A stretch of 64,000 nt of DNA from Geosiphon pyriformis uo1 (taxonomy: Eukaryota; Fungi; Glomeromycota). Both the position numbers and the translations under genes were made by a program. Positions 682 to 43,194 of the stretch are shown piece by piece. Under the pieces are notes generated by a model. It was not told where the DNA came from and did no database searches. It worked only from the letters and a program-made list of their open reading frames with translations. How positions within the stretch are numbered: the first letter of the stretch is position 1; every line of letters starts with the position of its first letter. The stretch is taken from the NCBI GenBank assembly GCA_016748015.1, contig JAAOMT010000602.1, forward strand, positions 881,696 to 945,695, written 5' to 3'.

Positions 682-708
682 CATTCCAACCCAAAAATAT
701 AACAAAAG

Positions 709-2078: not shown

Positions 2079-2133
2079 AAAACCAAAGAAGTATATAAAA
2101 ACACAATATACATGACAAAAGATATCAAAAAAA

Positions 2134-2790: not shown

Positions 2791-3634
2791 GAAAATAAGA
2801 ATCATAGTAGTATATATATTAGCCAATTAGAAGTAGATTTAATAAAATATAGAATTTCAAGATTTCTCTCAAAAGAATTACAGAATTTTAGGAATTACAA
2901 GATTCTTATATGAAAAATTGCAGGATTCCAGAATTCTAGAATTCCTTTCGAGAAATTGCAAGATTCCAGAAATTCCAGGATTCCTGGTAGAAAAAATAGA
3001 AGAATTGAGAAATCTCAAATATGTATATATAGCAGTAGCATTAGAAGCAAAAAAGACAGACTTTTTAGTTTAGATTTTATCTAAGCAACTTTTTAATTCA
3101 CAAATATCAATAAAATAATTATTTGTTATCTCAATCTGTTCTCAACTATCAACACTTTATGTTAATAGCTGCTGATACTTAACTACACTGAAACAATAGC
3201 TCTTAATTATAGTTATTGACAAAATACTAACTTAAACTGCCTTGGCTTATTTTTCTTTATTTTTATTTTCTTTTATTTCTTTTATTTTCTCTTTTATTGT
3301 TGTTGACTAATTAATTAAAGATTAAGTACTAAATTATTGATATCACAAATAATCTGGTAAAAGACCTGAATAGAAGAGTACAGAGTAAGAATTTGGATAG
3401 CTTATCAAAAGAACACAACTGTCAGAATAAACTGGCCACCAAGCTGAAAAAAAAAATTGGAAAACTCATCACAAAAGACTTGCACACTATTGAATCTCTG
3501 TTTATTATACAAAAAACTCCAATTCAAAACCTTTAGATCACTAAAATTTTCAGATAATACCAATCATATTAGCTATTAACACCAAGTTATGGATTTGTTA
3601 TTTGATTTGAAATTCCAAATAATCACCTGTAACA
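2780..3634 (+). repeat. 3' LTR of A1 (855 bp)
   Basis: Starts TGTTAC and ends GTAACA; preceded by PPT AAAAGGAGGAA; ~10-bp tandem repeats at ~2850-2990; TATA-like tatatata near 3025; similar to 37264-38102. Confidence 0.92.
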
Positions 3635-6245
3635 CTGTCTTATAATTAGTATTAAAAAATTCAAATACAAAGCCAATTTTATGAAATATTATTACAGATG
3701 ACAAACTCTTATTTACAAAAATATAGTTAATAACTTTTTTAATTCTATTAAAGTTGCTTCAAATAGGAATCTTAACCAAAAAATGTTCACTAAAAGAGTT
3801 AACCAATCTCAGATCCAAACATTTCTTAAAACTTGCACTTTTTTTAGAACTATTTTTATTGAAATTACTACCCAAGTTTACAAAAAACTAGAACTAAATG
3901 TCTTAGAAATAATAAAGTTAATATTAAAAGCCTGATTAAATTTAACTTTAACAGATACACTAATATATAAATCTAAAATTATAATTAATAGTTTACTCTT
4001 AAATAAAAAATAAACTAAAATAATCTGACTTGAAATTTTTTCAATTTTTAATACATGTTAAACCAATAAGTTATTTATAATAATAGCCATATTAGTATCA
4101 AAAAATTTTTTGACCAAACACAACATAAAGATTCAAATATTATTAAACCTATTTATAATCTATAGTCTAATATTAAACTTCAATTTGGTTTCTGTTACAA
4201 TAAAAATTACATTATTAAATTTTATGTGTTAACAAACAATGTTTTTTTGCTTAACTAAATTATTTATTTTCTTAATATTACATATAACAATCTTTTAAAT
4301 AAAACTAATTATTAAAAAAAATAAAAGCCTAAATCTAAATTAAGTTTGTTTATTTTAACCAAAAAGTCCAAAACCATATTTAACAAATTTTTTTTAATCT
4401 TTAAAAACTTAATAAATTCAAAGATATTATTTGTACAACAATACTACTATTAATAGCCATACCCAAACTTTTACTTATTATTATTATATATATTTTTTAA
4501 TTTTATAATAAAAGATTTATTAATAGCTGTTATTCAAAACTAGACTAAAAAACTGTTGGCCTAAGTGTATTTAATTTTATAACCAATTTATTAACTTACT
4601 CCACAAAATTAGCAAGATTATATTTAAAAACAGCAAATCTGTTATTTATTTCCAACATAACTGGTAAAAAAGATTTTATTTTCAAAAAAAAGTCAACTTT
4701 TGTGAAATTATTATATAAAAAAATAGAAAAAAACAAAAACTTATTAACAACTTTTATTTAAAAAATATTACCAAAAGCAATTAAATAAGCAATAAAAACT
4801 GATTTTTTGGTATAAATAGTAGTAAGTCTGTTTTCATTCAACATTAACAAAATTTTATAAAAAAAACGATTCATAAATGCTTTTTTACTAGTAGTATAGT
4901 TAATCAATATGTGACCCAATTTTTTATACTTAATATATTTAATTAAGTTTAAATAAGACCAATACAAATTAGAATTTTTTAGCATTAGTGTAATTGTTAT
5001 AACAGCATTCAATAAAAATTTTAAATTAAAATAAATTACAGCACATTTAGTTTAAGTATATATAAATAGATGACAATTTATAATACAAGTTTTTTTATTA
5101 ACAAAATTTAAAAAATTTAAAAAATTATGAGCAGTTGTTCTTACAGAAAAGTATAAAACAATATTTTATTGCAGTTTTTTGTATTTTATGTTTTCTTGTT
5201 TTTGTTAGTTTTAGCAATCTGCATAGCATCTTTTTTAATTAAAATAGACTATTTTACTGCAGCCAAATTAGTATAATCTAATAGCTCAAATTTTATGATA
5301 CTTTTTGTCACATCTTACTAGTTATATTTTGATTAATTCAATAATCTTAAATTTAAATAACACAGTATACACAGCCTTTACAAATGTTTTCACCAAAATT
5401 TTTTTGATAACCACAGCTTAATTTAAATATTTAACTGATTTTTTAAAATTAGTATTTACTAAGATTTTTGCTGCTTTTGCATTTTCTATAATCTGCATCA
5501 AATCCAATTCAGAAATAAACAATACATGAATGATTTTTGCAAATTTTAAAAGAATAAAGTCTTTTAAAAATTATTAATTCCAAAAAACAGTTTTTTAACT
5601 ATTTTCAACTTTTTTTGAAAAGACTTTTTTGTTATAATATTCAAATTAATATCCAAAACAAAAAATTTTTTAACTGAAACCTGAACCAAATTTTTGAAAA
5701 AAAAAGTAAAAAAGAAGTATTTATTGTAATATTATTATTATTACTATCAAAAAAATTAATCTTGTTAAAAGGTTTTTTTAAAATATACTTGGTCATAATG
5801 GTTGTTTTTTTAGAGTGCTATTAATATTTCTATTTTTGATTTTATTTTTATTATCATAGTTAATACTAGTTCTTTTTATTAAATTTTTTTTTATATTAAC
5901 ATATTTTAATTCAGTAGTGTTTTTGGTATTAAACTTTTTCTCACTATTTTTAATAAAATCTTCTTATCTTGTTAAAAAATTACTAATTATGTTTTTTTTA
6001 ACAATAACTCTATTTTTTTTTTTTTTTTTTAAAGATAAAAGCTTTTATTCAAACCTAAACCAAAGCTTTTGGTAGTCTTTTTTATGTTTAAATTACTAAT
6101 ACTAATAGCTGATTTATTGTTAAACAAATAGAATTTTAAAGTATCTAATTGAATATTAAAAAAAACAGCAAAAAAAAACAAAAACTTTTTTTTCAAAAAT
6201 TATGCTCTTTGAAAAATTTTGGACATAGAAAAAAAAAAGTTTTTA
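3635..6245 (-). mobile_element. Degenerate LINE (LINE1): 5'UTR, ORF1 and start of ORF2 APE, interrupted by A1
   Basis: Minus strand near 4310-4180 reads like KIVICNIK.INNLVKQK.IV..H...TETKL (ORF2 start of LINE2/4); 5' end at ~6240 matches the 5' ends at ~25060 and ~51045. Confidence 0.8.
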
Positions 6246-6476: not shown

Positions 6477-9437
6477 ATAGAACTAGTAGACTCTTCTGTT
6501 GGTGGTTTTGGTACTGGTTTGACTGGGTTGGAATCCTGGTCTAGAACTAAAAAAAAAGCGCAAGTTGAGAATATCTATGTTCATGATCTTTCATACAAAA
6601 AATCAAAAAAATCTGGTGTTACTGGAGTTGTGGTGAACTCATTGGCTGGACCTCTTCCTGAACACGTTTTATAGACTAACTGTGGTGAATACAAAGTATC
6701 TTGAAGTAGTGAGATTGGGAGTAAAGATACCAGCATTAGTGGGATATTGGATGCTGAAAACATAGACAACATGGTGGCCAAAGAGACTAGTTATGTAGAT
6801 TTCGATGCTTCTGAGACTGATAACATGGTAGACAATATAACTTCTAGAAAAATGCGAACAAAAATCTATGTTTTAGGACTGCCACCAAAAACACCTTCCT
6901 TCAAAAACTTAAATAATGACAATACTGAGTTGGTGTTTTCTAAATCTAAATTTGTTGAGTTCAATCAGCTGTCACCAGCCAAATTACATGTTCTGGATAA
7001 ACATAGCTTTGAGCCAGTTAGATTATTCACTTTGGATGTAGAGTTGGCTGCTGTGCCTTGCAAAACTAATGGTGATAAATTAATTTCAATCAAAAAGATT
7101 TTTTATAGAATTAATGGTTTTGAGGGAGCCTTTACTCTTTCAAAATTCTCAGAGATTATCAGATTCTCATTTACTTCTGAATTTAGCATGAATAAGGCAA
7201 AGGAATTGGCAATTCGTAAAAAAATTGTGGTAAATGATGATCTTAAAAAGGTTAGCAGCCATTTAGATAAGGAAATTATTGTCAAGGAGATTCCAGTTGA
7301 TCTTTTCAAATTAGCTGTTGAATTTGTTTTTTTTAAGTTTAGAAAAATTGTATCAATCAAGATACAACTGATTGGTCTGTGGCAAAAGGCTTTGGTAGAG
7401 TTTGAGTCTTCTAAAATAGCTGATTTGGTCGCAGCTAAGTGGTCTGTTTTTATGAGAAAAGATTCCGTTTGTGTGGCAAAAGCTGTTGATGATAAACAAT
7501 CATGAGTTTCTAGAGATTTGCATTGGGCATTGCTCTATACCCTTCCAGTTGGTACTATGGCTTATAATCTTTCAGATTTGTTGAAATCATATGGTAGGAA
7601 AACTTGTTTCATTGGCTGTAATTCCAGCTTTTATGTGTATAATAGATGTGCATTTATGTGTTTTGTTAATAAGGCATCCAAATTGGCTGCTATTGGTTCT
7701 ACTCCAGTATTTAAGAGTGTGAATTTGCATTGGGCCAGTCTTTTTTTGGCCCATTGTGCTTAATGCAAATAGTTTGATCACATCTCTACAGGGTGTTTAA
7801 TAGATGGGAATTCTGGTATTTGTGGTAAGTGGGTGGTAACTCCTCAGGATTAGATTCATTTGGCCAACATATATAAGAAAAAGCAGGCACCAATTGTTTG
7901 CCCAGTTTTTTTTGGTGGTGTTATGAGTAAACTTGGTAGGTAATAGAACTGGTAACATTTGGTGCTCTCAATTATTGGAAATGTGTCTTCCACGTAATTT
8001 TTTTGGCTTAGTCTTGGTTATTAGTCTCTGAAGATCTATTCCTGAATGTAAATTTACCCATTGAGTTCTTTGGTTATAAAGCAAAGAGTTTGTTTTTCAT
8101 TGATTACAACATTTTCCGTAAATGTGAGCTTTCTTTTTCAAGCTAACGAGTGCAGTCATTAGAGTCTGGTGTTGTCTTTTCGCCCTTCTAATAAGCTATC
8201 AAGATAATATTAATATCCAAAACCTAAGGGGAGCCTTTTTCTTTTACCAGGCTATTATGAAGTCTATTTCTAGACAGTCAATTTTCCTATGTTGCCACTC
8301 CACAAGAGAAAAAAAGAAAAAAAATAAAAGAAAATAAAAGAAAATAAAGAAAATAAAAATAAGAAATAAGTGTCCTGTCAATAGCCGTGATTAAAAGCTA
8401 TTGTGCCAGCAGGTTAAGTAGTGGATAATAACATGGATTTGAAGAATTAAAGGGATATTTTATTGATATAATTCCATTTCGGTTGATAGCAACTATCTTT
8501 GAAAGGAAAAGTATTTAATAATTATAACCTGCAAGTCTAATTGACTCTGAGAGTTTAATTGACTTTTGAAAGTCTAATTTTCTCTCTGGATGTCTTTCTA
8601 ACTTCTATAGCTACTCATTTTATACATTTTTTTTGTTCTATAGGATTACTTCTGATTGTTCTGTTATTGCTAACTATTGCTTTGCTATTTCTGTAATTGC
8701 TTTGTTTTTCTATGTTATTACTAGTTATCCTATGTTATAATATGTTATCTGGTGTTATTACATATTATTCTGTGTTATCCTATGTTATAATGCGTTATCT
8801 TGCATTATTCTAAGTTATAATGTGTTATCTAACATTATTGTGCACTATTTTGTATTATGTCACGTTTTGGTCACATTTCTTTATAACTTTGGATCAGTTT
8901 TTCTACTTGGGTAACAGTGGGAAAACTTGGGCCCAGGTTGCAGGTGGCTTCTCTTCTCATGTGGTTTTGTCAGTTCCTTCTGGTGCTAGTTCACTTTCAA
9001 GTATAAAACTTTCAGTAATGACTTCCGACCTTCTTGATGATTCTGGCTTGGCCAAACACATGGCTTTTTTGAAGCACTTTATGGAACTTTTGTTAGATCA
9101 GGTTTCAGAGATTTTAGGGAAATTAAGCTTTGTGAAATTAGTGCTAATGTTTTCACCTTCTTGTGTTTCTTCCCCTTTTGTTGCTCTTCTCTTGGATCTA
9201 GCTTTGAATTCAGATATGGCTGTGGATAATGTAGTGATGTCTTCTTCTTCTTTTCTTTTGGTAGTCAATAATGCTACTTCCAAACTAAGTTTGAGCAGTT
9301 CAAAGGTTTTTACTGCCAAGGTGGATGGTTTGGAATCAAAGATAATGACTCTGGAAGTCTCAATTGGTTCGGTATTGGCAAGATTGGACTCTTTGTATTT
9401 TGGTTTGGGTTTGTTGGCTTCTTTTTCATCTCAATGA
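6477..9437 (+). pseudogene. LINE2 ORF1 (RRM-like + CCHC knuckle), split by solo LTR 7919-8916; start approximate
   Basis: ORFs 6747-7505, 7518-7763 and 8820-9437; C-x2-C-x4-H-x4-C remnant at ~7755-7795; PVFFGG|KTWAQV rejoins across the insertion; homologous to 51179-53019. Confidence 0.85.
7919..8916 (-). repeat. Solo LTR (998 bp) of a third Gypsy LTR type
   Basis: TG...CA termini; 4-bp TSD GTGG at 7915-7918 and 8917-8920; minus strand shares the caatagc...ggctattg hairpin and T-rich tract with family A LTRs; short tandem repeats at ~8700-8860. Confidence 0.88.
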
Positions 9438-11635
9438 TCAGTTTAGTTTGGAAAATTGCCACTTGTAAAGTTCAGGGTATAAACAATCTTGCAAAACAGA
9501 AGGATATTGTTCATTGGCACAGAGATATGGGCAATTTGATTTTAATTATTACTGAGACCAAGTTATGAAGCAAGGTTCATTTGTGGATTGCTAATAGGTT
9601 TAATAGTATTTGTGTTTTTACTTCTGGTATGAATTTTGGTAACCTGAATTCAGGTGTTGCCATTATTATGGACATTTCTCTGGCTCATCATGTGTGTAAA
9701 ATTTCTAAGGTTTCTGGCCAGCTTCTCTCTGTTAGGCTACTTTTCAAAAACAAACTCTCTATTTTGATTATAGGACTCTATGCTGGTGTTTCTTTGGTAG
9801 TTTGGTTCTCTCAAGCTGGTGAAATTAACTCTATGATTGCTAATGCTGTGAATAAGTTCTCTTTTGTTGTTCTGGATAGCAACTTCAATGAAGATGGCTC
9901 TCGTAAGTATGCCAGTTTTAAAAAGTATCTAGATCTTGGTTTGGTTAACTCCTTGAGTGGAAGTTTTTTTGTGAAGATGCCTACTTGGGCTAATTTTCAT
10001 GGTGTGGCTAAAATGATTGACTTTCTGTTTATCTCCTTAAACTTGGTTAATACTATAATGAATTGTATTGTGTGTAATATTGGGGAATTTTTTGATACTG
10101 ATTATCAGGCTGTTTCTGTGTCTGTGAATTTGGGTGGACTTTTGAATATGCAGTTGAACTCTCTTCACAGACAAGCAAATAGAAATTGGTAAAAATTTAA
10201 TTTTAAAAATGCTAGTAAAGATAAGTGAAATGACTTTAAGTATGTCATATTAGCCAATATGGTAATGTTCTTAGATGAGTTTTCTGCAGCTTCAAGATTC
10301 TTGAATTTAGATGCAATATGGGATGTTATTCATAAGATCTTGGTTTTTTCAATTAGTGAGATATTCAGAAAAATATGGTTTAAAGACTTTGATCATGTTT
10401 TTATCAAGAAATCTTCAAGGTTTCATAGACTTTATCTTTTGGTTTTTAAGATTGTTGGGGCTTCTTGTAAGGATGGTGTTGACAATTTTGTTTCTTTTAT
10501 AAGATGCTGGCATTCTTTGGACAATGCTAAAGCTTTGGTTGTTCAAGATTTAGTGGACTCTGGTGCAGTCTTTAATCATGTTTGTTCTACATTCTTTGGT
10601 GTTAGGAAATCTTATTGTGCTTTAAAGCTTGCAGAATCTTTAAGGACTAAGGAGGTGAACATCAGGTCTGCTATAGATAAAAAGATGGATAGCTTTGAAA
10701 CAAATAAAAGTCATACTATAAGAAGTGTATTGAAGTGCCCATTTTACAAAGTAGTGCTTGATCATTTGGTTGTCAATAACAAACCAGTTTTGGAACCTGA
10801 TTTGGTTAAGTCTAAGGTTGATATGATTATAAAAAATTGGACTTGGAAGCATTGAACAGTTCTTGATGTTTCTAGTAAGTGGTATCATCAGTATCAGTCT
10901 TTGGGTTATGTTTTTGACAGAGCTTTTGCTGATATGATGTGTTTAATTAGTTTTGATGAATTTTTTGAAGTGGTTTTTGATCTGCCTGATGGCAAAGCTG
11001 CTGATCTCTTAGGTATCTCAAATGAGCTTTGGAAACATTGTAATAGACCTGTTCTGAATATGCTCTTGGTGCTTCTGAATTCTTGTTTGTTTGGTAAATT
11101 CATGCCCAGTTCTTGGAAGAAGGCTTGGGTCTTAATAATTCCCAAACCTTATGAATAAAAAGGTGTTCTGATAAATACTTACCCTATTGCATTAATAAAA
11201 ACAGCTTGCAAGATTCTTTCTAAGATTTTCTCTAATAGGATTTTCTCAGCTTGCAGTACTTATGATGTTCTTTGTAAAGACAATTTTTCGGTTCTAAAGA
11301 ATACAACAACTCAATCTCCTATTTTTGCAATTGGGTCGGTCATTGAAAATGCTTTGGAGAAAAACCAGAAGATCTGGCTGGTGTTACAGGACATGCGGAA
11401 GACATATGATTCAGTCAGCTGGAAATATCTTGAGAAGAGTTTGGTCAGGATCAAAATGTGTGATAGATTTATTCAATTTTTTGGTAATATTCATAGGGAT
11501 TGTACCAACTATGTTATAACAGATTTTGGTTTGTTGGATGGTTATTGTGTGCATGATGGTTTGGACCAAGGAAAAGTTTTCTCTCTCCTTCTGTGGGGTA
11601 TATTTTATGATCTTCTGTTGTGTGAAGTCAAGCAT
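9434..11635 (+). pseudogene. LINE2 ORF2, 5' part (AP endonuclease + RT N-half)
   Basis: WKIATC..., ITETKL, SGVAI, (G)NFN, IDF, TDY/H APE motifs; LQDMRKTYDSV and GLDQG..FS RT motifs. Confidence 0.9.
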
Positions 11636-12612
11636 TGTTACCAGTAGAATTTTAGCTATTAATTAGCATGAAATTATCCTTATAATTCTTATCATTAATT
11701 AACATGTTAATATCAATTCAAATTATTACTTATTATTTAATCAATTTATCACATATCACGATTCAATTAATAATTTAATTAGTACAACAGAAAGTAAGAT
11801 AATCAAATTACACAATACCCTGAACTTTGTAACATTCTAAAATTCGCCGAAATTTACAGAAATTCATCGAAATTTATATGAAATTCACCGAAATTTATAG
11901 AAATTCGCCGAAATTATGAATAGTTCACTCAAATTAATCAATAGTTCAGTGAAATAACTTGTAGTTTATCAAAATGTATCTTTAGTTCACCAAAATTTGA
12001 GCAAAGAGAAAAAGTGCAAGTTTATAGACTAGTACTACAACAAGTTGTATCTTACTTTAGATTTATCACTTAAAACCATTTCTACACACACAAAAAAAAA
12101 TAAATATCAAATAAATCAAAAAACCAAATTCTTTAATTATTGCACTTGGAAAATCCCCAAAACCCAACTAATGTTTTGAAATTGATTAGCTACCAATTTC
12201 AGTAAACTGTTAGTGACTTCAGGTCTGGATAGAAAACGTTTCCCTTAACAAAATTCTATTTCTTTTACATTTCTTTTATTTTCTTGTATTTTTTTATTAC
12301 AATCATTAAGATAGTCTACAGACAAGATTCCTGTAGAAGAGTTGACTTTCACAGCAAAGTAACTACACATTTTTAGTGAGCTTCCAGACAAGCAATTTCT
12401 GGGAAAGAGTTGATGTTTACTACAATGTAACTACATAAAGTAACTGGCATGAAATTGGCCATTCCACTTATAAGCCCAGCAGTTCAAATTATAGAAGATA
12501 ATTTAAAGATAAATTCAGTTACTGAAGGTCCAACTACTTCTAAAAAACGTAAATTTACAACAAACAGACATTAACAACATTTAAAAAAAGAGACCAAAAA
12601 CCTCTGGTAACA
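11636..12612 (+). repeat. B1 5' LTR
   Basis: TGTTAC...GTAACA; ~96% identical to 20552-21528; ~20-bp tandem units aaattcgccgaaattt.. at ~11840-11915. Confidence 0.97.
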
Positions 12613-12614
12613 TT

Positions 12615-12626
12615 TGGTGCTCTCCC
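12615..12626 (+). promoter_or_regulatory. Primer-binding site of B1 (TGGTGCTCTCCC)
   Basis: Lies 2 nt after the LTR end and starts TGG; complementary to a tRNA ending ...GAGCA-CCA (isoacceptor not identifiable here). Confidence 0.85.
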
Positions 12627-12657
12627 ATGGAAATAACATAGCAACAACAAATTCAAA

Positions 12658-15600
12658 GTGGCAACCACACCAGACACAACAACTCTAAAGTATTATTAGT
12701 CAATTTACACTCACTGCAAGCAAAGATTCAACATCCCAGACGAAATTGAAGTTGTCAAGAAATCAGTATACCAATACATTGAAAATTGCATTAACAATTA
12801 TTTTTTTGGAAACTACAACATTTCAGAAATTAGAAGCAATCTCTACAATAATTTAGTGCACTATTCACAATTGGGAACAGAAGACCTGAACAGTAAAACA
12901 CTTGCTACTTACTTCCAAGAACTTAATTTTAATATTATTGAGTATTGTAAAGAAAAATACCCAGTACAGCCCAAATACTCTTTTAACTTTGAATCAGAAA
13001 CAGAGACAAGCAACAAAGACAAACAAAAAGTGAAACAATACTCAAGAACCACTCCAAACACTCCAATACTACCAAAGACAACTGCCAAACACTTGCAAAT
13101 ACCTGAACAAGAAACCAGTGTCAAATTACCACTTTCTATTACACCATTTTTAATTTCACTTGTTCAACCACAAACACCAAGTTCACTACTTAACCATTTC
13201 TCCAGACCAGAAGATTTTCAGTTACCTAGAAATTCTACTCAACAACAAGAACCAATATCAACAAATGCCAATATCATTGATTACTTACAGAAAAACGAAA
13301 ATAATCATTCAGAAAGCTTGGAAAGTGAAGAAACTGAATCAAAACCAGAAGAAATCACAGAAAATAAAGAAAAAATGACAACTGCTTATATTGCAAAAAT
13401 TCCAGAATTCACTGATAAAGACAATGATACCAGTCCTCAAGAATGGTTCGACAAAGTTCAAAAAGCAGGAGATACAAATGGTTGGAATGCAACAAGAATG
13501 CTCAAAGCAATTCCATACTTTTTCCAAGGAATTGCAGAAGAATGGTTTGAAAACTTAGAAGAACCATTTGAGAACTGGCAAGCATTCAAAAATGCTTTCT
13601 TACAATAATTCACTGACAACAACATCTTTATCACTCTCCGCAATCGCTTTCACAATATCAAACAAGAAACATCTAAAACTGTTATGACCTATCTTGGAAG
13701 ATTCAACAAACTTTTCAGATGAATTTGACAATTAGAAACCAATGACTACTATTCTAATGCTCAAATTCTAGATCAGTTTATAGCAGGATTAAAAGACAAA
13801 CTAATTAAGAAAGTCCACCCACATGCTCTAGCAAACTTAGCAACTGTCATTAGACATGCAAAGAGCTATGAAATAGCAATAGAAGAAGCAAATCACACCA
13901 AGCTTGTAAACCTTGCAATTAGAGAAACCAGCTTAGCAGCTGAAGAGAAAATAGACCAACTCACAAAAAAGGTTGAAAGCTACTTCACAAACCAACAACA
14001 ACAACAACAACAACCACAAAGATATCAACCCCTACAATAATACAACCAAAACAATTTTGGATCACCATTCAACAACCAACTTCAAAATTGTTATTATTGT
14101 GGAATTCCAGGACACTGGAAACAAGATTGCGGAAAACTACAAAAAGACCAACAAAACAGGAGTAATCAACATTACTCTTTACCACAACAATCTTATTACC
14201 AACCCCTATCACCAACTTATTATTCACCAAGATCACAAATTCAAAACAGCTATTATCAACCAGCTCCACAACTAATTCAACAACAATATCAGCAATCTTT
14301 ACCAATTCAGCAAATTCAGACACCATCCACTCAACAATATCAAGTACCAGCCAGAAGATTGGTTCAACATAACCAATTTACACCTTAAAATCAATTCAGT
14401 AATAATAACACCAGAATCAACCCAAACAACCAGTTGATTTCTCGAAATTCTGGTCAGCAAAGACCAAACCACTTTTACACACAACCAAGCTATTTAACAA
14501 TGCCAGAAGAATCGGATTTTCAACAAACTGCACTTTCTGAAAGTAGAAATGCAGCACTAAAATCAAATCTTTTCAATCATACCATTCCACCAGCTCAAAT
14601 TGCCCAAAATACCAATCTGTCAAATATATTTCTATTTGAATTTGAGGCAAATGAATCACCATTCTTGCTGAGTAATGCAGTGGTCAATGAATGGAAAGCA
14701 ATTACTGCTATGTACACAGAAGCTATAGTAGAAGGAAAATCTATTCACTTAATTCTAGATAGTGGATCTGCTGGAAATATTATCACTTATTAGCTGATGC
14801 AACAGCTCAAACAAAATGTAGACAGACCAGCTTAAACAGTTATTGTCACAGCTGATGGTATAAAGAAGACTCCAGTAGAAAAAATTGATGATTTCTCCTT
14901 TACAATTGATGGAATTACCATTCTAGTTAAAGTTCTTGTTATGGATGCACCCCAATACCAAGCTCTAGTCAGAAATAATTGGCTTCTCAAGGCCAATGCA
15001 AACCTGAACTGGGAAACTTAAGAACTTAAAATCTCATACCAAAGACAATATATCATAGTACTTGCAATCTGTGATACCTTTAACAAACAATCAAAAAAAG
15101 CTCCAGTATTTGAATTTGAGGAAGAGAAGGAAATGCCAATTACTAAAACTTACATGGCTCTTGGATTAACATCCAATTGGGCTGAAGAAACAAAACAAGA
15201 AATTTTTAAGGAAACAAGAAGATAGAAGAAGGTTCGGTATTCTACACTAGAACCACGAAAAGAACCACCATACATTCCACTGAAATACAAAGATTGTAAA
15301 AAGAAGCTTTCATCTATGGGAGTCTGTATTTGTCCAAAAAAAGAATACGAAACTTGCACTTACTATTTCTGCAAGGCATGCCATAGAGAACGATTTGGAT
15401 CCCCAAAAAGAAGTGGAAAATGGGACAATACACCTTGTCTTACATGTAGAGATATATTACCAAAAGAATGCAACTGGATTGATGTTGTAATGAAAGGAGG
15501 AGTATGTGATCAAACCTGTCAATATGCTCTATCAATTTTGGAAAAAGTCAGAAGAGAAACACCATTTGATGCAGCATACAATAGTGCTCTCAATAAACTT

Positions 15601-18280
15601 TACCACTACCCTTATGATGCTGAAATGATTTTTGACCTAGCAATGGCATTAATCAATAGAGCCACCCAAGAAAATGTCCACCAAATGAAAGAAGCTGAAT
15701 ACATTGAGTATACTATGGAATTAGCTGAATTTGATTATGAAAATAAAGTAGAAACCTATCACCAAATTACAAGCCACACATATCCAATTCAAGAAGCTCA
15801 AATTCAATAATTAGAGCAAATGAACATTCAATTGTGTAAAAAATGCATCATGCCTTGTGATGACAAATGGTGTCCAGAATGCTATGCTCTTAGCATTCCT
15901 CTGCCAAAGGAAAATAATAAAAATAAAATCGAATTTGGAGTATCTGAACTGGTAAAAGAACTACTAACCACCTCTATCTATCTTCTTGAAAAGCAACCAC
16001 CTCTACAACTTAAATATTTCGACAATCATGGCCAAGAAATCAGACCAGAAAAAGCACACAAAATTGATGCTGGATATGACCTAAGATACCCAGGAAAAGA
16101 TACTTTGGTTCTCTAACCAAAGTCTTTGACAAAAATCAATCTCAAAATCATTCTTGAAATTCCACCTGGAGCAATAATTCAAATTGTATCCAGATTATCA
16201 TTGGCAAGCAAAGGAATCAATGTTAAAGGAGGAGTTATAGATGCAAGATATACTGGAGACATTACCATCATGTTACAAAATGAAACAGACAAACCATTCA
16301 GGATTAAACATGCTGAGAAAATTGCCCAAGCAATTTACCTATCCCTAATCAACATTTCAGAGTTACAATCAGTTAAAAACAGAGAACAATTGGAAAAAAA
16401 TGAAAGAGAAACTCAAGGTTTTGGTTCAACTGGACAATTTACAGTTTCAGTAAACATAGTTCTTAATACACAGAATGAATCTTACCAGATTCTTCAACTT
16501 CCCCAACCAATTACTATTTCACCTTTTGGTAAACATCACGAAATTTACACTTGCTCAAAACCCACCACTACCCAACAAATCTTTGAATCCAATAAACAAA
16601 TTTGTTTAAAGCATGAAATCTTAATCCCAAACATTTATATTCCCAAAGAAATGAAAAAATTTTGAGTTATATTCTATAACTCCAATAATTACCCCATTGT
16701 TTTATTGAACAAACTAAAGATTGGAATCATACACAGTAACATTTTTCAAGATGGAAATCTTCAAATTGTTTCTAATTTCATCGAAATTATAAGACATACA
16801 CTATTTCCAAATCCAAACATTATTTTTACTACTGAAAACTACCACCTTTTGGAAGAAAAACTCTCTCAAATCAACATGAGTTCCTTGGAACCTCAACAAC
16901 AAAGACAATTGAAACAATTAATAACTGAATTTGCAGATATATTTGCAAAAAACAACAATGACCTTGGAAAAACGGATATTGTTCAACACCAAATTTATAC
17001 AGAAGATGCTCCACCAAAATGACAACAAACCTATTGAGTTCCACCTGCTAGCCACCAATTTATTAGAGAAGAGGTCCAAAGAATGCTTAATAACAGATTA
17101 ATTCAACCATCAAGAAGTCCATGGGCCTCACCAATAGTTCTTGTCAAAAAAAAAAACGGAAAAATCAGATTCTGTGTTGATTATCGACAATTAAATAGTG
17201 TCACAATTGGAGATGCCTACCCTTTCCCAAGAATTGATGACATGTTAGATGCTTTAGGAAAAGCCAAGTTCTTCTCAACTTTAGACTTGGAAAGTGGATA
17301 CTGGCAAGTCGAAATGGACCTAAAAGATAGACCCAAAACAGCATTTACCACCTAAGGAGGAAACTATGAGTTCAATATTATGCCTTTTAAACTCTGCAAT
17401 GCACCAGCAACATTCCAACAACTCATGGATGTTGTATATGAAGGACTCTTATGGCAATCAGTAGTTGTTTACCTTGATAACACTAATGTGTACTCACCAA
17501 GCTTTGAAGTCTATCTTATTCACCTGCGAGAAGTTTTTCAATGATTACAGAAAGCAGGATTGAAGTTGAATATTGAGAAATGTCACTTTAGAAAAACAAG
17601 CTTAATCTTTCTTGGACACATAGTTAGCAAAGATGGAGTCAAACCAAATCCTGAAACAATTAGTGCTGTCAAAAACTTTCAAACTCCCAAAAATACCACA
17701 GAACTAAAAGAATTTGTAGAATTAGCCTTCTACTATCAGAAATTCATAAAGAGATTCTCAGAAATTGTCAAACCACTTAATTATTTTACCAACAAAAATG
17801 TGCCATACAAATGGACAGAAGAACAACAAAAAGCTTTTGAAACCCTCAAAACAAGATTAACAACAGCCCCAGTTCTTGTTTACCCAAACTTCAACAAACA
17901 ATTCCAACTAGCCACTAATGCTTCACACATAGCTTTTAGTGCCATCCTATCACAATTGGATGAAAATGGCCAGAAACAAGTCATTGTCTATGCTAGTAGA
18001 ACACTCAAGCCAACAGAACTCAAATATGGCTCAACAGAACTAGAAGCTGCCACAGTCATTTGGGCTCTCAAACACTTTTAACAATACCTAAAGAATAGAA
18101 AAGAGTTTGACATAATAACTGACAATATTGGCCTCAAAGACTCAATAAAAAAAAACTGAACAAAGTGCCAAACAGTTTCGATGGAATGACTTCCTAGCAG
18201 ACTACAGATATATTGTACACCACAAACCAGAAAAACTATATATCAATGTTGATAGCCTCTTAAAAATAAAACAAGATTAA
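12658..18280 (+). pseudogene. B1 Gag-PR-Cys-rich-dUTPase-RT-RNaseH polyprotein (one frame, broken by stops)
   Basis: ORF pieces at 12856, 14434, 15316, 15820, 16126, 16705, 17083 and 17560 are all in the same frame. Motifs: CYYCGIPGHWKQDC knuckle, LILDSGS protease, SPWASP..RFCVDYR..LDLESGYWQ..YLD(N) RT, AT(D)AS..ELE RNase H. Confidence 0.95.
16050..16434 (+). pseudogene. dUTPase domain in B1 pol
   Basis: All five trimeric dUTPase motifs: AHKIDAGYDL, SR(S)SLA, GGVIDARYTGDI, EKIAQAI, R.TQGFGSTG. Confidence 0.93.
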
Positions 18281-18337
18281 TACCAACAACAATTTTACTA
18301 CAACTTATCAACCTACCAACAAAATAACCAAACAAAA

Positions 18338-19722
18338 ATGGATCCCAGAAATTACAGCAATCTTAAAAATTATTTGAAAATTCTTACCATGCCAGAAAAC
18401 TGGTCTCCAAATGAAAACATTGTTTACAACACCAATCAAAACAATATTTTATACACTACAACAGAATTTATTACAAAAATCATAAAAACCCAAACCAACT
18501 ATTCAGACTAATACAAGAAAATGAAAAAAAAACAATTCTATACAACATGTACACAGATCCTTCTTCAGCACATTTGGGAAGAGATGGAACAATTCAAAGA
18601 ACTCTTGAACATTATTTTTGGCCTCAAATGCAAAAAGACATTTGACAATATATAGAATCTTATGATAGTTGTCAAAGAAGAGAAGAAATTCACCCCACAG
18701 AACTTTTAAATCCAATCAAAGTTGGACAATTTTTTGACAGAGTTGGAATTGATTTAGTCGGACCATTACCCATCACAACCCAAGGAAATTGTTATATTGC
18801 AGTTGCAGTAGATTATTTTACCAAATGGCCTGAAGCTAAAGCCATTCAAAAAGCAGATGCAAAATTAGTAGCAAATTTCATCTATGAAGACATTATTTGT
18901 AGACATAGATGCCCAATTGAACTCTTATCTGATCAAAGAACACATTTTGTGAACAACTTAATACATGAAATTTGTGAACAATTTAATGTCAAAAGATCTC
19001 TATCATTACTTTATTATCCTCAAACAAATGAATTTGTAGAACGTTTCAACAGAACATTGTGTGAATCTCTAGCCAAAGTCTTAACAGACTTTGAACAGGA
19101 ATGGAATATCTTTATTCCATTAGTGTTACTAGCATACAGAACACTAAAACAAAATACTACAAAACACACACCATTTGATTTAACTTATGGAAGGACAGCA
19201 ACATTACCAATTAATTTCACAGTAGAAACATACCCTGTGCAACCAATTAATAAAGAAAACTTTCAAGAAACACTCCAAAAAAGAGCCTACACTCTTCTTA
19301 GTACACTAGAAGGAAAAAGAAAAATAGCAGCAACTCATATTGAACATTTCCAAGCTCAACAAAAAGAAAGACATGACAATAAACTACCACTTATAACCAA
19401 CAAATTTAAAATTGGAAATAAAGTTCTCTTAGACAGAACTAAGACTGAAAAACAATGGAGTGGAAAATTTGAAAACAAATAGGATGGACCATTTTATATT
19501 CACGAAATTCTAGGCAATGGATCATACAAGTTAAGACTTAATAACAAAGTACTAGCAAAAGTTGCACATAGAGATAGATTGAAACACTATTATTTCAGAA
19601 ACAATCCTGAACTATTAATTCCACAAATTGATACACATTCCTCTTTAATTAATTCTGAAAATATTCCCCAAAATTTAGAACCAATAATTATAATAAAACA
19701 ACAACCAAACTTAAATACTTAA
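18338..19722 (+). pseudogene. B1 integrase (own ATG after the pol stop)
   Basis: HHCC remnant, GIDLVGP..DYFTKWPE, SDQ.THF, VERFNRTL, GPF module. Confidence 0.92.
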
Positions 19723-19863
19723 TTCAACATAATCTTTTAATAACACACAAAAGACAAAAATAATAAATAATTACAAAACACCCAAAACCCAAAAACAAAT
19801 AAAACCCCAGACCCAAAAATATTTTTTTTTATTCTTCCTTTTTATTAATTAGTCAATTTTATC

Positions 19864-20571
19864 ATGATTATTCCTCGAAATATTCAACAAATATCCCAAA
19901 AATTAATGTTAGCCTTGAAAACACTTCCTGACTTATCCATAACAATTAATGGAAGTTAAATTAATTACATTCAAAAAGAAACCACAGCCCCAGTAATAAA
20001 TAATTCTCAGAACTACCACCCTTATAGAAGAAAAACAAGAAGTCACTCTGAGAATAGGTTACCAGAACTTTTGAAACAGACATTAAAAGAAAACTTTTTA
20101 TCTGCCTCTATTGACATTTTACCAAATGCCACAACACAACAAAAACTTCTACTATTACTTAATGAACAGAACAATTAACATACTCTCATATTTAAATATT
20201 TCTGCATTGGAAAAACACTTTATAAATGAAAACTAAAACTTGAAGCAACAAATACCACCCCAGAAGCCATATAAAAACAAATTCACAATGAATTCAAGAC
20301 AGCAGCTGGATCAACAAACACTCGCTACAAACTTAGAGCAGCTCTTAGACTCTATAATTTGTTTAATACTTGTGAAAACGTCTTACAAAGCCCAATACTT
20401 TAACCATTGAAAATACAATACATTGAAAAGCTCACAAAACTGAAATTTCAACAATTTTCAGAGCAAATCACTTCAATCATCTTGGATTACTATCTTGCCA
20501 TTACAGATAGTGCTTGGATTTTGACAGAACTCAGTCTTGAGGAAGAAGTTATGTTACCAATAGAATTTTAG
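19864..20571 (+). pseudogene. B1 extra ORF3 (236 codons, with stops)
   Basis: Same 708-nt length and sequence as the intact B3 ORF 40902-41609; runs through the PPT into the LTR. Confidence 0.85.
20539..20548 (+). promoter_or_regulatory. Polypurine tract of B1
   Basis: GAGGAAGAAG, 3 nt before the 3' LTR. Confidence 0.8.
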
Positions 20572-21528
20572 CTATTAATTAGCATGAAATTATCCTTATA
20601 ATTCCTATCATTAATTAACATATTAATATCAATTCAAATTATTACTTATTATTTAATCAATTTATCACATATCACAATTTAATTAATAATCCAATTAATA
20701 CAACAGAAAGTAAGATAATCAAATTACACAATACCCTGAACTTTGTAACATTCTAAAATTCACCGAAATTTACAGAAATTCACTGAAATTTATATGAAAT
20801 TTGCCAAAATTTATAGAAATTTGCCGAAATTATGAATAGTTCACCCAAATTAATCAATAGTTCAGTGAAATAACTTGTAGTTTATCAAAATGTATCTTTA
20901 GTTCACCAAAATTTGAGCAAAGAGAAAAAGTGCAAGTTTATAGACTAGTACTACAACAAGTTGTATCTTACTTTAGATTTATCACTTAAAACCATTTCTA
21001 CATACACAAAAAAAAATAAATATCAAATAAATCAAAAAACCAAATTCTTTAATTATTGCACTTGGAAAATCCCCAAAACCCAACTAATGTTTTGAAATTG
21101 ATTAGCTACCAATTTCAGTAAACTGTTAGTAACTTCAGGTCTGGATAGAAAACGTTTCCCTTAACAGAATTCTATTTCTTTTACATTTTTTTTATTTTCT
21201 TGTATTTTTTTATTACAATTATTAAGGTAGCCTACAGACAAGATTTCTGTAGAAGAGTTGACTTTCACAGCAAAGTAACTACACATTTTTAGTGAGCTTC
21301 CAGACAAGCAATTTCTGGGAAAGAGTTGACATTTACTACAACGTAACTACATAAAGTAACTGGCACAGAATTGGCTATTCCACTTATAAGCCCAGCAATT
21401 CAAATTATAGAAGATAATTTGAAGATAAATTCAGTTACTGGAGGTCCAACTACTTCTAGAAAACGTGAATTTACAACAAACAAACATTAACAACATTTAA
21501 GAAAAGAGACCAAAAACCTCTAGTAACA
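20552..21528 (+). repeat. B1 3' LTR
   Basis: Direct repeat of 11636-12612. Confidence 0.97.
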
Positions 21529-24018
21529 GCATCAAGAAAGTACATGTAAGTACAGGATCAATTCTCACTTTATTTCCAAAAGTAGTCACACAGAATCTCA
21601 AGCCAGTATTTTTTTTTTCTTTGCTATTGGTGCTTTCATTGGCAATACAATTTGGGTTAATAGTAATTAGAGTGCTACTCAACACATTCTTGATGTTGCT
21701 AGTGAGTTTTTCTGGATTAATAACATTTTTATTAACAATAATAAAACAGTGGCCATTTTCATTAACAGCAGAATCAGCAATCCTTCTCTTCTTATTAGTA
21801 GTGTGCCCATCTTTATTACCAAAAAGGGGGAGTCTCATTAGTATTTGGGTATTTTTTTTCAACTGAGGGTCTTTCAAAGCCTAGTTTAGCTAAGATGCAT
21901 TCAGATGTTTGTTTTTTTACCAATCTGGTTTTGAAAAAAGCTGTAACAGATAAGCAGTTCTTGTATTTAGTGTTAGTGGTTTTCTATCCTATTGTCAGTT
22001 ACAAAACTCAGTTTAACTTTGTTCCTGTTGGTGTGTGCAATAAGTAGGATGCTCTAATTCATAAAAGCTTGAAACTTAAGTCTAGTCTGTCTCTCAACTT
22101 TTCTGGTGATATGTTATATTACATCTCATTTTATGGTCTAAAGTCCTTCTTGCAAATTCAATTTAAAAGTAAGATTGCTTCACTTGTAAGTCTTGTAAAC
22201 TCTGGTGGGGTTTTGGGTTGCTTGTTCTCTCACCAGTCACATGACTTGCAGGTTCAATGTTGGTGCCCTGTTTATCTATTGGTTTCTCTTGTTTGTACTT
22301 ATATCAATGTCTCTAATAATTTTCTGGCGGACTTGGTTCATATTCTTCTTAATTGTAATTTATCTCTGAGTGGCCCTTTGGCCAATTCTTTTCAGTTATG
22401 TGATGGAGTGCCCATGTTAGTTGTTTTGGATAAGTCAAAGTTTGTCAAGTTTCTCTTTTCTTTTTGGCAATATGGTATTGCTTTTGTGAATCAACTTTGT
22501 GATCATCATGGTGCTGTTTTTGATTGGTACATCTTTAAGCAGTGGAAAAGATTGGACCTACGTAGTTCTGTTCTGGAGTGGTTCAAGCTGTCCACTACAT
22601 TTCTCAATGATGTAATCTTGTCTCTGACTTATTCCTTGGCTGTGTATGATGGTAGTTCTTCAGACATTCTTGGGTCTAGTGACTTTGTGTCTGTTTGTGA
22701 TCATTTTTTGCAGGTTGATAATGGCATTTTATTTGTGTACACAGATAGATCCTTGAAGAATCTGGGCACAGCTAGCTGTAGAGCTGGTGCTGTCACCTTT
22801 TTTGAGAACATTGGTTTGGGTTTGAGTGTTGGTGTGTTAGATTTGATGTCTTCTACTTTGGCTAAGTTACAAGCTATTGCTTTGGCTTTAGAGTGTGTTC
22901 TCTTATCTAGTTCTATTAACCTGTTTTTGGATAGTCAATCTGCTTTAGATGCTTACAAGTCAGAACTGGGTCTGATGTGTTCTGATTTTTGTAATCAGTG
23001 TTGGGTTGAGTGTCAACATATCGTTAATGTTATTTGTAATAAGAATTTGAGGGTTAGTTGGCACAAGGTAAAAGGCCATTCTGGTGTTTTGGAAAATGAA
23101 CATGCTGACATAATTACTGGTGCTGCCTTTCTTTTGGGCTGGTGTTTTCCTTCTCACTTGGATGAACATTTTATTGTGTCTGATTATAGTATAGTTTCTG
23201 GCAATTCTAGGCACTTTGTTTGTGATATCTATTGTTCCATTTGTCATATATGTTGAGAGATTGGTTCTGATTCGAGGTTTTTGGAGGGTGGTTTGCTTTC
23301 TGATGTTGATTAGATCCACCTCTTATTGATATGGCATTCTAATTTGCACATGGCTACTGGTTTTACTAGCCGATCCTCAGCTAATGCACACACGTACTTT
23401 ATGAAAGCTTTATATTATTGCTTGCCCATTGCCATTTGAAAACATCTTTATAGTAGACTGTATTTCAGTATGTTGTGCTTGTATTGTGATAAAGTGGAGG
23501 TGTCAGATTATGCATTTTCTTGTAAGGTTAACAAATTTGCCTGCTATCAGTTATTGGACTCCTACGTGAATTCTTAGAAAACACTTTTGGGCTTTGCTCA
23601 TTTTTCTTCATGTGTTTTGCAGTTGTTATTGTCCTGTTCTTTTGATTTTTCTGTATCTATGGCTCTTTTCAAGGGTTTTGTTTTTGATGATTGATTCTGC
23701 AAAGCTGTTTCCATTTTCCACAATCCTAAAATTGCTAGTGTAGAGGTTGTTAAATTTGTGTGCTCTTTCAGTATGGTTTTTAGGAATAATATCTGATTAG
23801 TTTGCACTAAACACCACACCTATATGAAAAAGAATGATTTAATTCTTCTTAATGGTTCAACACTTGTTCCAGTTTCTGGTTTGGCTTCAGGGTTTTCTGC
23901 TGGTGTATTAAAACTGTTTGGCATTATTGATGCTTTTGGTATGTATTTTGGTTTTTACAAATCTTGTTCATTTTTTTCAGGTGTTAGTGGCTTAGTGTCA
24001 ATTCATATAGCTGCATAG
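21529..24018 (+). pseudogene. LINE2 ORF2, 3' part (RT C-half, RNase H, C-terminal Zn finger)
   Basis: YLGIF RT motif; RNase H YTD(G)S..A(E)LQAIALAL..DSQ..WHKVKGHSG..NE.AD in ORF 22069-23256; CLYC..E...F.C. Confidence 0.9.
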
Positions 24019-24146
24019 TGTTGTCTTAATTGGCCTGAATGGCTGGTCACATGTAAAAAGTGCATAATTTACACCTAGTTTAAATTATTTCTTTGATATA
24101 TAGCACTAGGCTGTGTTTGAATCTTATTCAATAAAAAAAAAAAAAA

Positions 24147-25054: not shown

Positions 25055-28000
25055 ATAAAAATTTCTTTTTTTTCTATGTCTAAAATTTATCATAAAAAAT
25101 ACATTTATTGAATAAAAGTTTTTTTAATTATTTAGTACAATAAATTTAAACCATTTTTGCTCAATTACAAAACCACTATTGGCCTTAGTATTGCTGTTAT
25201 AAAAAAGTTTATTAAAGAATCTAACTTTAATTTTAACAATAAATCTATTTTATTAAGAAAAAAAAAGAAAAAAAGTGTTTTAAAAAATGGTATTAATGGC
25301 AAGAAAACTTCTACTAAAGAAGTAAGTAGTTGTTTTTGAGATTTAAAAACTGGTAACACTACTGAGTCTGATAGTGTTAACATAAAAAAAGAGTGTTTGA
25401 TTAAAGAAACCAGTATTAAATATAATAAAAAAGATGCTTTTGATAAAAAAAATTCTAATTAAACATTGAAAAATTTGTGAATAAAGACCAAGAAGGCTTT
25501 AGAAAAACCATTGGAAAAAATCAATTTTTTGAATAACACTAATAATAACATTTTATTGAAAGCTTCACTAATTTTGTTTTCTTTTTTGAAAAATCTAATT
25601 AATAATTTTGTTTAAAAATATTTTGTTTTGGATATTAGTCTAAATAAAATAATTAGGAAGTTTTCTTAAGAAAAACTCATAGTAATTAAAAAGTTGTTTT
25701 CAAAAATCAATGGTTTTGAAAAAGCATCAATTCCCTTAAAATTTGCTAAAATTATTAGAGTGATATTTATTTCTAAACCCAGTTTGGCACAAACTTCTAA
25801 AAAGGCTAAGAGTATAGAAATTTTGATAAATACTGATTTTAAAAAATCTGCTGAACAATCAAATCAGACTGTGATAATCAAAAAAATTTCTATTAAGACA
25901 TTAACTAAGACTGTACATGCTGTACTATCTGAATTTAAATTAATTAAGTTAATTAAGATACAATTAGTAGGAATATAACAGAAAGCTGTGATGAAATTTG
26001 AACATTCTAATTATGCTAATTTAGTTATAACTAAATAGTTTATTCTAATTAAAAAAAATGTTGTATAAGTTGTTAGAATTAATTTGGATAAGGAATCATA
26101 AAATACAAGAGATTATTATAGAATGCTGCTTTATATACTGCTAATAGGAATGAAGTTTCATGATATTTAAAACTTTGTTAAATTTGTAAATAAGAAAATA
26201 TGTATAATAAATTATTATCTAATTATATATATTCAAACTAAATATATAGTCATTTGTTTTAATTCTGTTGAGTTTCTAAATACTATAATAAAAACTACAC
26301 TAATGCTAAAGAATATTAATTTATGCTGGTTTTATTTAAATTATACCAAATATGTAAAGTATAAAAATTTAAGACACATATTATTGGGCTGTATTATAAG
26401 TAAAAAAGTTTCTTTTGGTAGCTTATATTATAAAGTTTTGTCAAATACAGATAAAAACAAACTAGTTACCATATATGTCAAGCATTTAATATTTGTTGTT
26501 TACTCTGTATTTTTTGGTAGCATTTTTTGGACTAAGATTGTTAATAAATCTTTATTTTTTTTTTCTGTATAGAATAATACAGCAAATTTTGGCTTTTCTT
26601 TAGAGATAAAGCCTATTTTGTTCATATTAGATAATTTAAATATTAAATTTGTCACTCTTAAATACAGTTTTACTAGCTTTGTAGAGCAGATTGATAAGCT
26701 GATTAAGAGATTAGATGTACTTGAACCAATAATTTCTTAGCTTAACTCTGAATGTCAGTTATTAATAACTTTTTTATCACAGAGTTAAAAAATAGACATA
26801 ATAATAAGTAAGAGTTTGAGTATAGTTACTAGTAGTAGAACTGTTATAGGAGTGATTTCTTTGGACATGACAGTAGTTTCTAAATTAAAAATTAGTATAC
26901 AAAGTCTCTTAAATACAATTCTAAGCCTCTTAGCCAAAGTAAATAATTTTAGTATAAATTTGGGTTTTTGTTTATCTTAATAATCAGTCTCATTTAGAGA
27001 ATTGTTATGTGTAATGTCAAGAATATAAACAATCTTATTAAACAAAAAGATATTATCTAATAGCATAAAAATAAAGGCAATTCTGTATTAATTGTTATGG
27101 AAATGAAATTAAAAAGCAAGGTTTGTTCTTGAATCATAAACAAATTTGATAAAATTTGGATGTTTACTTTAAGCATCAACACTAATTACATGGGTTTTGG
27201 TGTGACTATAATAGTCAATAATAATATTTTTAAGCATATATACAAAGTTTTAGAAATGACTGGCCAGTTTTTATTAATACAACTGCTTTTTAAAAATTGT
27301 TTTTCAGTCTTAATATTGAATTTATATGCTAGATACAACTTTGAAAAAGAGGCTGGTCCAATTCTATGAGATTAATTTAATGATAGCTAATGTTCTTAAT
27401 ACTAACACATTTATGATTTTAGAAAACAACTTTAATAAAAACAATTCTGATTACAGTGCTAATTTTTGTTTGATTTTTTTAATGGCTTTTCTTTACACCA
27501 ACTTTCTATGTAATCTAATTTTAAAAAAATTGAAAAATATATAGACTTTGTTTTAGTTAATAATAGTTTTTATAATTTATGTTTTAATTAACAAGTTTAC
27601 TGTTCAGATAAGTTTTTGATATTAATTACTTGGTTGTTTTAATAAATATTGGCTTGAAAAATCTGCTTAACTTTCAGCTTAATTTTGTGCAAAAAATAGC
27701 TGCCAAAGAAAACTAAAAATTTAAAGTCAATAATGTCAATAAAAGAATCTAAAAAAAGTTTGAAAACATATTATCAGCTGTTATTTTGACTATTACTAAT
27801 GGCTTTGACAAGTGCAAAAAGAGACTTGATCTTAATAAAATGTAATACTTACTTCATTAGGTGGTTTGTTCTGCCATTAAAACTATACTTTTAAAAACAT
27901 AATACCAAAATGATAGAACAGTCAAATGTGTTGCTTTTTCTAAATCTTATAAGCTTAAATTATTAATATCAAGAATCTTAAAAGCATACAAATTAGAAAA

Positions 28001-41609: not shown

Positions 41610-41751
41610 GATAAAATTGACTAATTATGAAAAGAGAGAATAAAGAAAATTATTTTTGGATATGGGGTTTTTATTTGTTTTTGGGTTTGAGTGTTTTGTA
41701 ATTATTTACTATTTTTGTCTTTGTGTTTTTATTAGAGAATTATTGTAAAAT

Positions 41752-43137: not shown

Positions 43138-43194
43138 TCTTGTTTGGTTATTTTGTTGGTAAGTTGGTAAGTTGTGATGGAATTGTTGTTGGTA

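Follow-up and report, generated by a model that had tools for sequence, protein, structure and literature searches.

Within a 64,000-nt stretch of the Geosiphon pyriformis uo1 genome (contig JAAOMT010000602.1, positions 881,696 to 945,695; hereafter the window), self-comparison and translation revealed five nested copies of two long terminal repeat (LTR) families, I and II. The family I copy at 11636-21528 is a decayed Ty3/gypsy-type LTR retrotransposon, in which the integrase (IN) lies in an open reading frame (ORF) of its own, behind the stop codon that ends RNase H. Its features, in window coordinates, are:

11632-11635, + strand: left target site duplication (TSD), GCAT, with the right copy at 21529-21532
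11636-12612, + strand: 5' LTR, 977 bp
12613-12622, + strand: primer binding site (PBS) core, TTTGGTGCTC
12700-18280, + strand: ORF1, with 17 premature stops and a frameshift near 18150
13507-13794, + strand: Gag capsid (CA) by Pfam (E 2e-11), with its Met at 13375
14086-14130, + strand: CCHC knuckle (Pfam E 6e-4)
14719-14964, + strand: protease (Pfam E 2e-5)
about 15290-15890, + strand: Cys-rich domain, without Pfam match
16045-16434, + strand: dUTPase (Pfam E 5e-21)
17143-17625, + strand: reverse transcriptase (RT; Pfam E 6e-30)
from 17812, + strand: RNase H (Pfam E 3e-30)
18278-18280, + strand: conserved TAA ending RNase H
18281-18337, + strand: 57-nt spacer, A/C-rich and unstructured, with neither G nor AG
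18338-19722, + strand: ORF2, IN with its own ATG, a frameshift near 18410 and 2 premature stops
19864-20571, + strand: ORF3, 235 codons, crossing the polypurine tract (PPT) and ending 20 nt into the 3' LTR
20525-20551, + strand: conserved GA(A/G)CTC motif and PPT
20552-21528, + strand: 3' LTR

The RNase H stop and the integrase start

In all five window copies a TAA stands a few codons past the terminal motif of RNase H and is followed by IN with its own ATG, so that the two families have one layout, as a preliminary description of this DNA had proposed. ORF2 comprises HHCC, the DDE core and a GPY/F-SH3-like C-terminus, according to Pfam run on the family II copy. The gaps between stop and ATG are 57, 55 and 57 nt in family I and 61 and 27 nt in family II, placing IN in frame with RNase H in three of the five copies (gaps 57, 57 and 27). 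Because of these three, and because three other stops are shared within family I, the window by itself leaves a decayed CAA codon or readthrough open as explanations of the stop.

Conservation of the split among relatives

The relatives settle whether the layout is decay. A search with IN returned 528 proteins of similar length, and the figures that follow are from the 120 of these that were listed. Their named members are from Rhizophagus and the majority are metagenome proteins; in 96 of the 120, a Met lies within 3 residues of profile position 1. A DNA-level scan, independent of ORF boundaries, was then used to select the top 80 of 528 loci, to which a scan of viral contigs contributed one more (81 in all). 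Both an upstream domain and an IN start could be placed at 48 loci, the other 33 being too short or without an upstream domain match. The stop before IN is present in 47 of 47 informative soil-metagenome loci (about five pairs among them are near-duplicates), so the layout is not a product of decay, nor does it collapse to an ordinary gag-pol. The one fused informative locus, L081, is a distant match of 30% identity and the sole element from the viral-contig scan.

Relative to RNase H, IN lies in frame 0, +1 and +2 at 12, 19 and 16 of the 47 loci, and with all three frames in use there is no frame constraint on IN. An ATG is found at the expected place in 43 of the 47, overlapping the stop in 14 (-14 to -1) and spaced from it in 29 (24-727 nt); among 37 IN starts examined, 31 have a purine at position -3. 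In L002, the closest relative by IN, the TAA is followed after 24 nt by the ATG. Several loci are intact and have terminal repeats, e.g. L010 with ORFs of 1621, 426 and 162 codons, and long intact ORFs are also found in L017, L024 and L060. The three-ORF layout and the IN start codon are thus conserved over a broad lineage to which Glomeromycotina elements belong.

Longer proteins were searched separately, with a different query. At least 450 bits on the IN profile were scored by 8 of the 120 longer proteins listed vs 119 of the 120 near-length proteins listed. The eight are as follows: (i) P0203, P0204 and P0206 are Cetraspora/Rhizophagus gene models in which RT runs on into IN and the terminal motif of RNase H is missing, probably because spurious introns bypass the stop; (ii) P0207 and P0210 are NCBI gene models with irregular junctions; (iii) two are plant elements; and (iv) P0205 is a true in-frame fusion, the only one among them. 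P0219 and P0211, both weaker in-frame fusions, are also close to the group.

Phylogeny

Trees were built from database homologs only, without named GyDB, REXdb or Repbase reference elements; the near-duplicates L021, L033 and L071 were excluded, and 38 of the 97 fused proteins with an RT-RNase H match were kept. Families I and II are sisters in both the RT-RNase H tree (support 97/89) and the IN tree (96). In the latter they are joined by L002 (100), which alone among the loci has a window-type ORF3. In a quick RT tree all 23 split elements fall within one clade of 29 rows (SH-aLRT 93), and in the IN tree a clade at 95 takes in 25 of the 30 rows that are split elements or gene models. The simplest reading of these trees would be one origin of the split with rare re-fusion, and the approximately unbiased (AU) test does not reject monophyly of the split elements with the gene models (p=0.55). 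Other results weigh against it: a more careful but unconverged run recovered the split-element clade in only 62% of bootstrap trees; the in-frame fusion P0205 is nested inside the split clade of the IN tree; and the quick RT tree, though no other, places the fusions P0219 and P0211 with the split elements.

Among solved structures Ty3 is the best match for both RT-RNase H (E 1e-72) and IN (E 1e-50), with weaker matches to foamy virus, murine leukemia virus (MLV) and cauliflower mosaic virus (CaMV) (RT 1e-35, IN 1e-34). Of the two parts of the earlier proposal of a distinct, retrovirus-like clade, the first is supported, in that the families are sisters in both trees and belong to a lineage with a separate IN ORF, split in every informative metagenome relative, and a conserved third ORF. 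The second is not supported, RT and IN being nearest to Ty3 and ORF3 having neither a hydrophobic segment nor a viral fold match.

ORF1

A single frame running from 12700 to about 18150 encodes Gag, the CCHC knuckle, protease, the Cys-rich domain, dUTPase, RT and RNase H, and the Pfam domains of the 11636 copy lie on this one frame; other window copies have frameshifts, so the single frame is seen in that copy alone, where a frameshift is located near the end of RNase H. The majority of its 17 premature stops are a sense codon in at least one sister copy. Three stops are common to all three family I copies, namely two premature TGA codons and a TAA at 12634. ORF1 begins with an N-terminal extension, its first in-frame ATG (13375) lying immediately before the capsid domain, and family II likewise has a Met before the capsid domain (39126). 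Indels make the copies differ at the 5' end of ORF1. Its frame may open within the LTR and cross the PBS (window 12400-12700); in the copy at 28334 it is open from the LTR across the PBS except for one shared TAA.

The Cys-rich domain is homologous between families I and II (33% identity), without a Pfam match or a homolog among the 81 fetched loci, and its structure model (pLDDT 36) is unusable. The dUTPase is patchy in the lineage, being found in the window, L056 and L060. Upstream of RT, six relatives have an in-frame stop (L004:870, L027:3290, L029:902, L053:3358, L071:1585 and L055:929), in the context TGA-CTA in five and TAG-CAATTA in one. Both are classic leaky (readthrough) contexts, which makes readthrough between gag-pro and pol probable in these six. 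Other relatives have a frameshift before RT (L024, L011, L045) or a single ORF (L010, L017, L060).

ORF3

The third ORF was described earlier as overlapping the PPT and LTR in both families. Homologous ORF3s are indeed present in both, a hidden Markov model (HMM) of sequences from family I, Geosiphon and metagenomes matching family II with E 1e-30, and in family I the overlap into the LTR is 20 nt; both family II copies, however, have a TAA immediately before the PPT. ORF3 is 86% identical to G9A89_016769, and 42 of its 43 profile matches bear Geosiphon names. The third ORFs of the relatives are homologous among themselves: a profile from 15 of them detects another 14 loci with scores of at least 19 bits, every match being on the sense strand. 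This profile matches the intact ORF3 of the window (E 1e-4), and profile-profile comparison gives a probability of 84% (E 8e-6). An ORF3 homolog is present in 24 of the 32 loci that have at least 700 nt past IN (20 within 1.3 kb, three at a greater distance downstream, plus L002), and ORF3 frequently terminates on the GGAGCTC-PPT motif described below.

The protein has no Pfam family and no PDB sequence match better than E 0.02. Its model is predicted to be helical (pLDDT 66) and has no Foldseek match reaching E 0.001 in either PDB or BFVD, the best VIA Z being 4.7. With a maximal 19-residue Kyte-Doolittle value of 0.9-1.3 in five ORF3 proteins, there is no hydrophobic or transmembrane segment. 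An Env identity was ruled out by the low hydropathy, the helical model and the lack of a viral fold match. ORF3 is most likely a soluble, non-env accessory protein, conserved lineage-wide and with predicted helical structure; that it binds RNA or chromatin would be a guess. Its Atlas neighbours are Mucoromycota clusters, and one Atlas row for a closterovirus coat protein (0.90, 135 shared features) was taken as chance.

Nested copies and flanking signals

The other four copies in the window are:

28334-64000, + strand: second family I copy, RNase H stop 34929-34931, IN ATG 34987; its 3' LTR starts at 37169, is split by the family II copy and continues beyond the window end
39931-49030, - strand: third family I copy, TSD ATGG, with an RT deletion, RNase H stop 43197-43195, IN ATG 43137 and ORF3 at 41609-40902 without stops
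37264-63225, + strand: family II copy, LTRs 37264-38102 and 62387-63225, PBS 38103, RNase H stop 60247-60249, IN ATG 60311, ORF3 from about 61744; its host is the 3' LTR of the family I copy that starts at 28334, and it in turn contains the third family I copy and a long interspersed nuclear element (LINE)
1-3634, + strand: 3' part of a second family II copy, RNase H stop 679-681, IN ATG 709, ORF3 and 3' LTR

The LTRs of the 11636-21528 copy are 977 bp each, have the termini TGT..ACA and are 96% identical, their 39 differences being transitions without exception. About 69,000 contigs of one sequencing run match the element, with high copy number and heavy, transition-biased decay.

Three signals had been reported as common to both families, and two of them are. 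The PBS core is present in all four window copies that have a 5' LTR, and the relative L017 has the same core. TSDs of 4 bp are seen in both families (GCAT/GCAT, ATGG/ATGG and TTAC/TCAC, the last with one mismatch). The anti-PBS hairpin, the third of these signals, is significant in one of four copies, that of family II (z -3.74, equalled by 0 of 200 shuffles); the three family I copies give z values of 0.87, 0.56 and -0.44. The window has no tRNA, and no primer tRNA was matched to the PBS. Across the lineage the PBS varies, with TGGTGATTCC in L034 (98) and L053 (436) and TGGTGCTCC in L017 (6727) and the window.

A GGAGCTC-like motif lies about 8 nt upstream of the PPT in the window (20525-20551) and in L007, L008, L010, L024, L034, L039, L053, L058 and L070. 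It is kept at the DNA level though ORF3 reads through it in differing frames, and is possibly a cis element for plus-strand priming.

Other repeats were also observed. Two decayed copies, about 65% alike, of a LINE-like element with endonuclease, RT and RNase H occupy 8800-11632 plus 21533-24146, where the 11636 element is inserted, and approximately 51070-57835, where the LINE-like copy interrupts the family II copy within the dUTPase region. At 7950-7975 another LTR end is followed by the same PBS core, apparently belonging to a truncated element. Inverted AT-rich repeats of about 1.7 kb each, 68% alike, lie at 4238-5921 and 25355-27054.

An RNA motif in another subclade

A covarying RNA motif of about 40 nt, consisting of a short outer stem, a 12-nt A-rich bulge and an inner stem with an A bulge, lies between a few nt and about 30 nt upstream of the IN ATG in 18 of the 81 loci:

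L006, L007, L008, L009, L010 (5194-5230), L016, L017, L025, L026
L031, L034, L039, L058, L064, L066, L074, L077, L079

Two-sided changes occur in 8 of its 12 pairs, and none of 500 shuffles matches the score. The motif is present in all 13 informative loci whose ORF1 has a Cys/His-rich extension after RNase H and in none of the 34 without it; since the motif loci form one related group, this pairing counts as one event, not 13. The motif has no Rfam match (14 loci scanned) and no exact pattern match in viral contigs, and is absent from the window (best E 1.2); a single match in prokaryote genomes, with no IN, RNase H or extension nearby, was taken as chance. The ORF1 extension of L010 has no Atlas match.

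How integrase may be made

A separate IN frame with its own start codon makes a restart of translation likelier than cutting of IN from one long protein. We put at roughly one in two the probability that IN is made by stop-and-restart translation (termination-reinitiation) on the same genome-length RNA. Ribosomes would terminate at the RNase H stop and restart at the IN ATG of that RNA, crossing in the window families an unstructured, nearly G-free spacer of 27-61 nt, and meeting in about a third of the relatives an IN ATG that overlaps the stop. IN made outside Gag-Pol would need its own packaging route, perhaps binding to RNA, RT or Gag. Restart fits best because of these overlaps, the strong start context and the unstructured window spacers, which fold at 0 to -1.3 kcal/mol and contain 0-1 G. 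Several points weigh against it. Two thirds of the junctions are spaced, by up to 727 nt; restart after an ORF of 1,800 codons normally requires a helper element, and no shared element, whether like the termination upstream ribosome binding site (TURBS) or of another kind, was found in the window; the family II spacer at 60250-60310 holds an out-of-frame ATG; and the structured RNA before the IN ATG in the other subclade fits internal entry at least equally well.

Mainly because most junctions are spaced, subgenomic RNAs and internal entry stay in contention. IN, and ORF3 with it, might be translated from shorter capped RNAs produced by splicing or from an internal promoter, in the manner of the Pol and env genes of foamy viruses, a possibility that we consider real if doubtful. 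Spacer length would then be free to vary as it does (24-727 nt) and the strong context of the IN starts would be expected, and a T-rich tract with TAG precedes the ORF3 ATG in family I, with T-rich stretches before IN in several relatives. The tract is missing in family II, however, and no acceptor is conserved: 14 of 37 loci have a splice-acceptor-like site no farther than 60 nt from the ATG, vs 27% of random positions, and in two window copies the 60 nt leading up to the IN ATG are free of AG. Nor are the tight stop/start overlaps (14 of 43 loci) predicted by such RNAs. Ribosome entry independent of upstream translation, guided by an A/C-rich unstructured enhancer in the window and by structured RNA in the other subclade, seems unlikely. 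Although the covarying motif upstream of the IN ATG in 18 loci and the nearly G-free window spacers could serve such entry, neither the window nor any of the 34 informative loci lacking the ORF1 extension has the motif, its covariation counts are not independent within one related group, and A/C richness spans the whole sense strand.

The two explanations that the window had left open fare worse against the relatives. Readthrough of the RNase H stop, giving an RT-RNase H-IN fusion, would suit the three in-frame window copies and a lineage that has leaky-type stops upstream of RT, but those same stops act as an internal control: a leaky context is found at 0 of the 12 in-frame RNase H stops, a second stop precedes the IN Met in 8 of these 12, both family II spacers hold a further TAA, and 35 of the 47 relatives are out of frame. 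Without frame constraint or leaky contexts, and with second stops, readthrough is very improbable. It is scarcely credible that the stop is a CAA codon decayed by C-to-T change from an active ancestor with an ordinary Pol. Decay is certainly heavy and transition-biased, and the two TGA codons and the TAA at 12634 prove to be common to all family I copies, but the RNase H stop stands at the same position in both families and all 47 relatives, many of which have long intact ORFs (L010, L017, L024, L060), and the closest IN relative, L002, has the same arrangement of stop and start.

A wider scenario can be offered tentatively, and we think it rather unlikely to hold in full. The elements would form an undescribed, widespread, polycistronic LTR clade of soil fungi, in which IN was freed from Pol once and is started by interchangeable devices (stop/start overlap, G-free spacer, or structured RNA recognised by the Cys/His domain of ORF1), with ORF3 acting as a translational transactivator or as a packaging factor for free IN.

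Implications

LTR retrotransposons and retroviruses are described as delivering IN within Pol, an arrangement that sets both the quantity of IN and the way it is packaged; the existence of a broad lineage in which IN is free-standing means that the coupling of Pol and IN is dispensable. Two testable questions follow: by what means a polycistronic RNA is read in a eukaryote, and by what route free IN enters the particle. For annotation, gene predictors fuse RT and IN via probably false introns, and pipelines would call intact elements broken. LTR sequence makes up 41.2% of the G. pyriformis genome, an expansion that was published without element structure in the part available, the main text not containing the word 'integrase' (PMC11952901). 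Given this proportion and the approximately 69,000 matching contigs, the family is probably a large part of the expansion.

Comparison with known systems

Victoriviruses and caliciviruses use stop-restart translation, and foamy-virus Pol is made apart from Gag. In these viruses, as here, a downstream enzyme ORF starts at or near the upstream stop and its product needs its own route into the particle; that product is a polymerase or capsid protein there and an integrase here, where no TURBS or pseudoknot is shown. Errantiviruses and Retroviridae likewise have a third ORF just before the 3' LTR, but ORF3 here is without a signal or transmembrane segment and without a viral fold match. Retroviridae are further described, in the part of the source available, as having a tether and a newly acquired RNase H (PMC12440569), whereas here one gypsy-type RNase H follows RT directly, with no tether. 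The Troyka elements of the same partly available source have CG..CG ends and 3-bp TSDs (PMC12440569), unlike the TGT..ACA ends and 4-bp TSDs found here. Gmr1, as described in the accessible part of its source, has IN upstream of RT (PMC2774666), and the window and its relatives differ in having IN after RNase H.

Fungal gypsy elements that have a dUTPase between protease and RT are already in the literature, including, in the portions of the papers available, Tuber Tmt1, Phanerochaete and Postia PosPlaTy3-5 (PMC2864245, PMC6431247), and the window elements share this position. The Postia elements are treated there among chromodomain-containing gypsy elements, those portions making no mention of a separate IN ORF; the present elements differ from them in the absence of a chromodomain, none being found in the family II IN or in the Pfam lists of the 120 IN homologs listed. 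The accessible part of PMC13465315 deals with Cryptons. Full-text searches, in a body of literature that excludes most subscription journals, Repbase Reports, GyDB and supplements, turned up no account of gypsy elements whose IN has an ORF to itself, and the split-IN layout is apparently undescribed in the literature searched.

The nearest known system is Ty3/gypsy itself (Metaviridae; yeast Ty3, PDB 4OL8 and 7Q5B), with which the elements share TG..CA LTRs, 4-bp TSDs, PBS and PPT, the order protease-RT-RNase H-IN, and RT and IN of Ty3 type. The Pol polyprotein of such elements is described, in the parts of the sources available, as consisting of protease, RT, RNase H and IN (PMC3248453, PMC2774666). 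The present lineage differs in carrying an extra conserved ORF3 and a Cys-rich domain without Pfam match, and in keeping IN outside the Pol polyprotein, in five of five window copies and 47 of 47 relatives.

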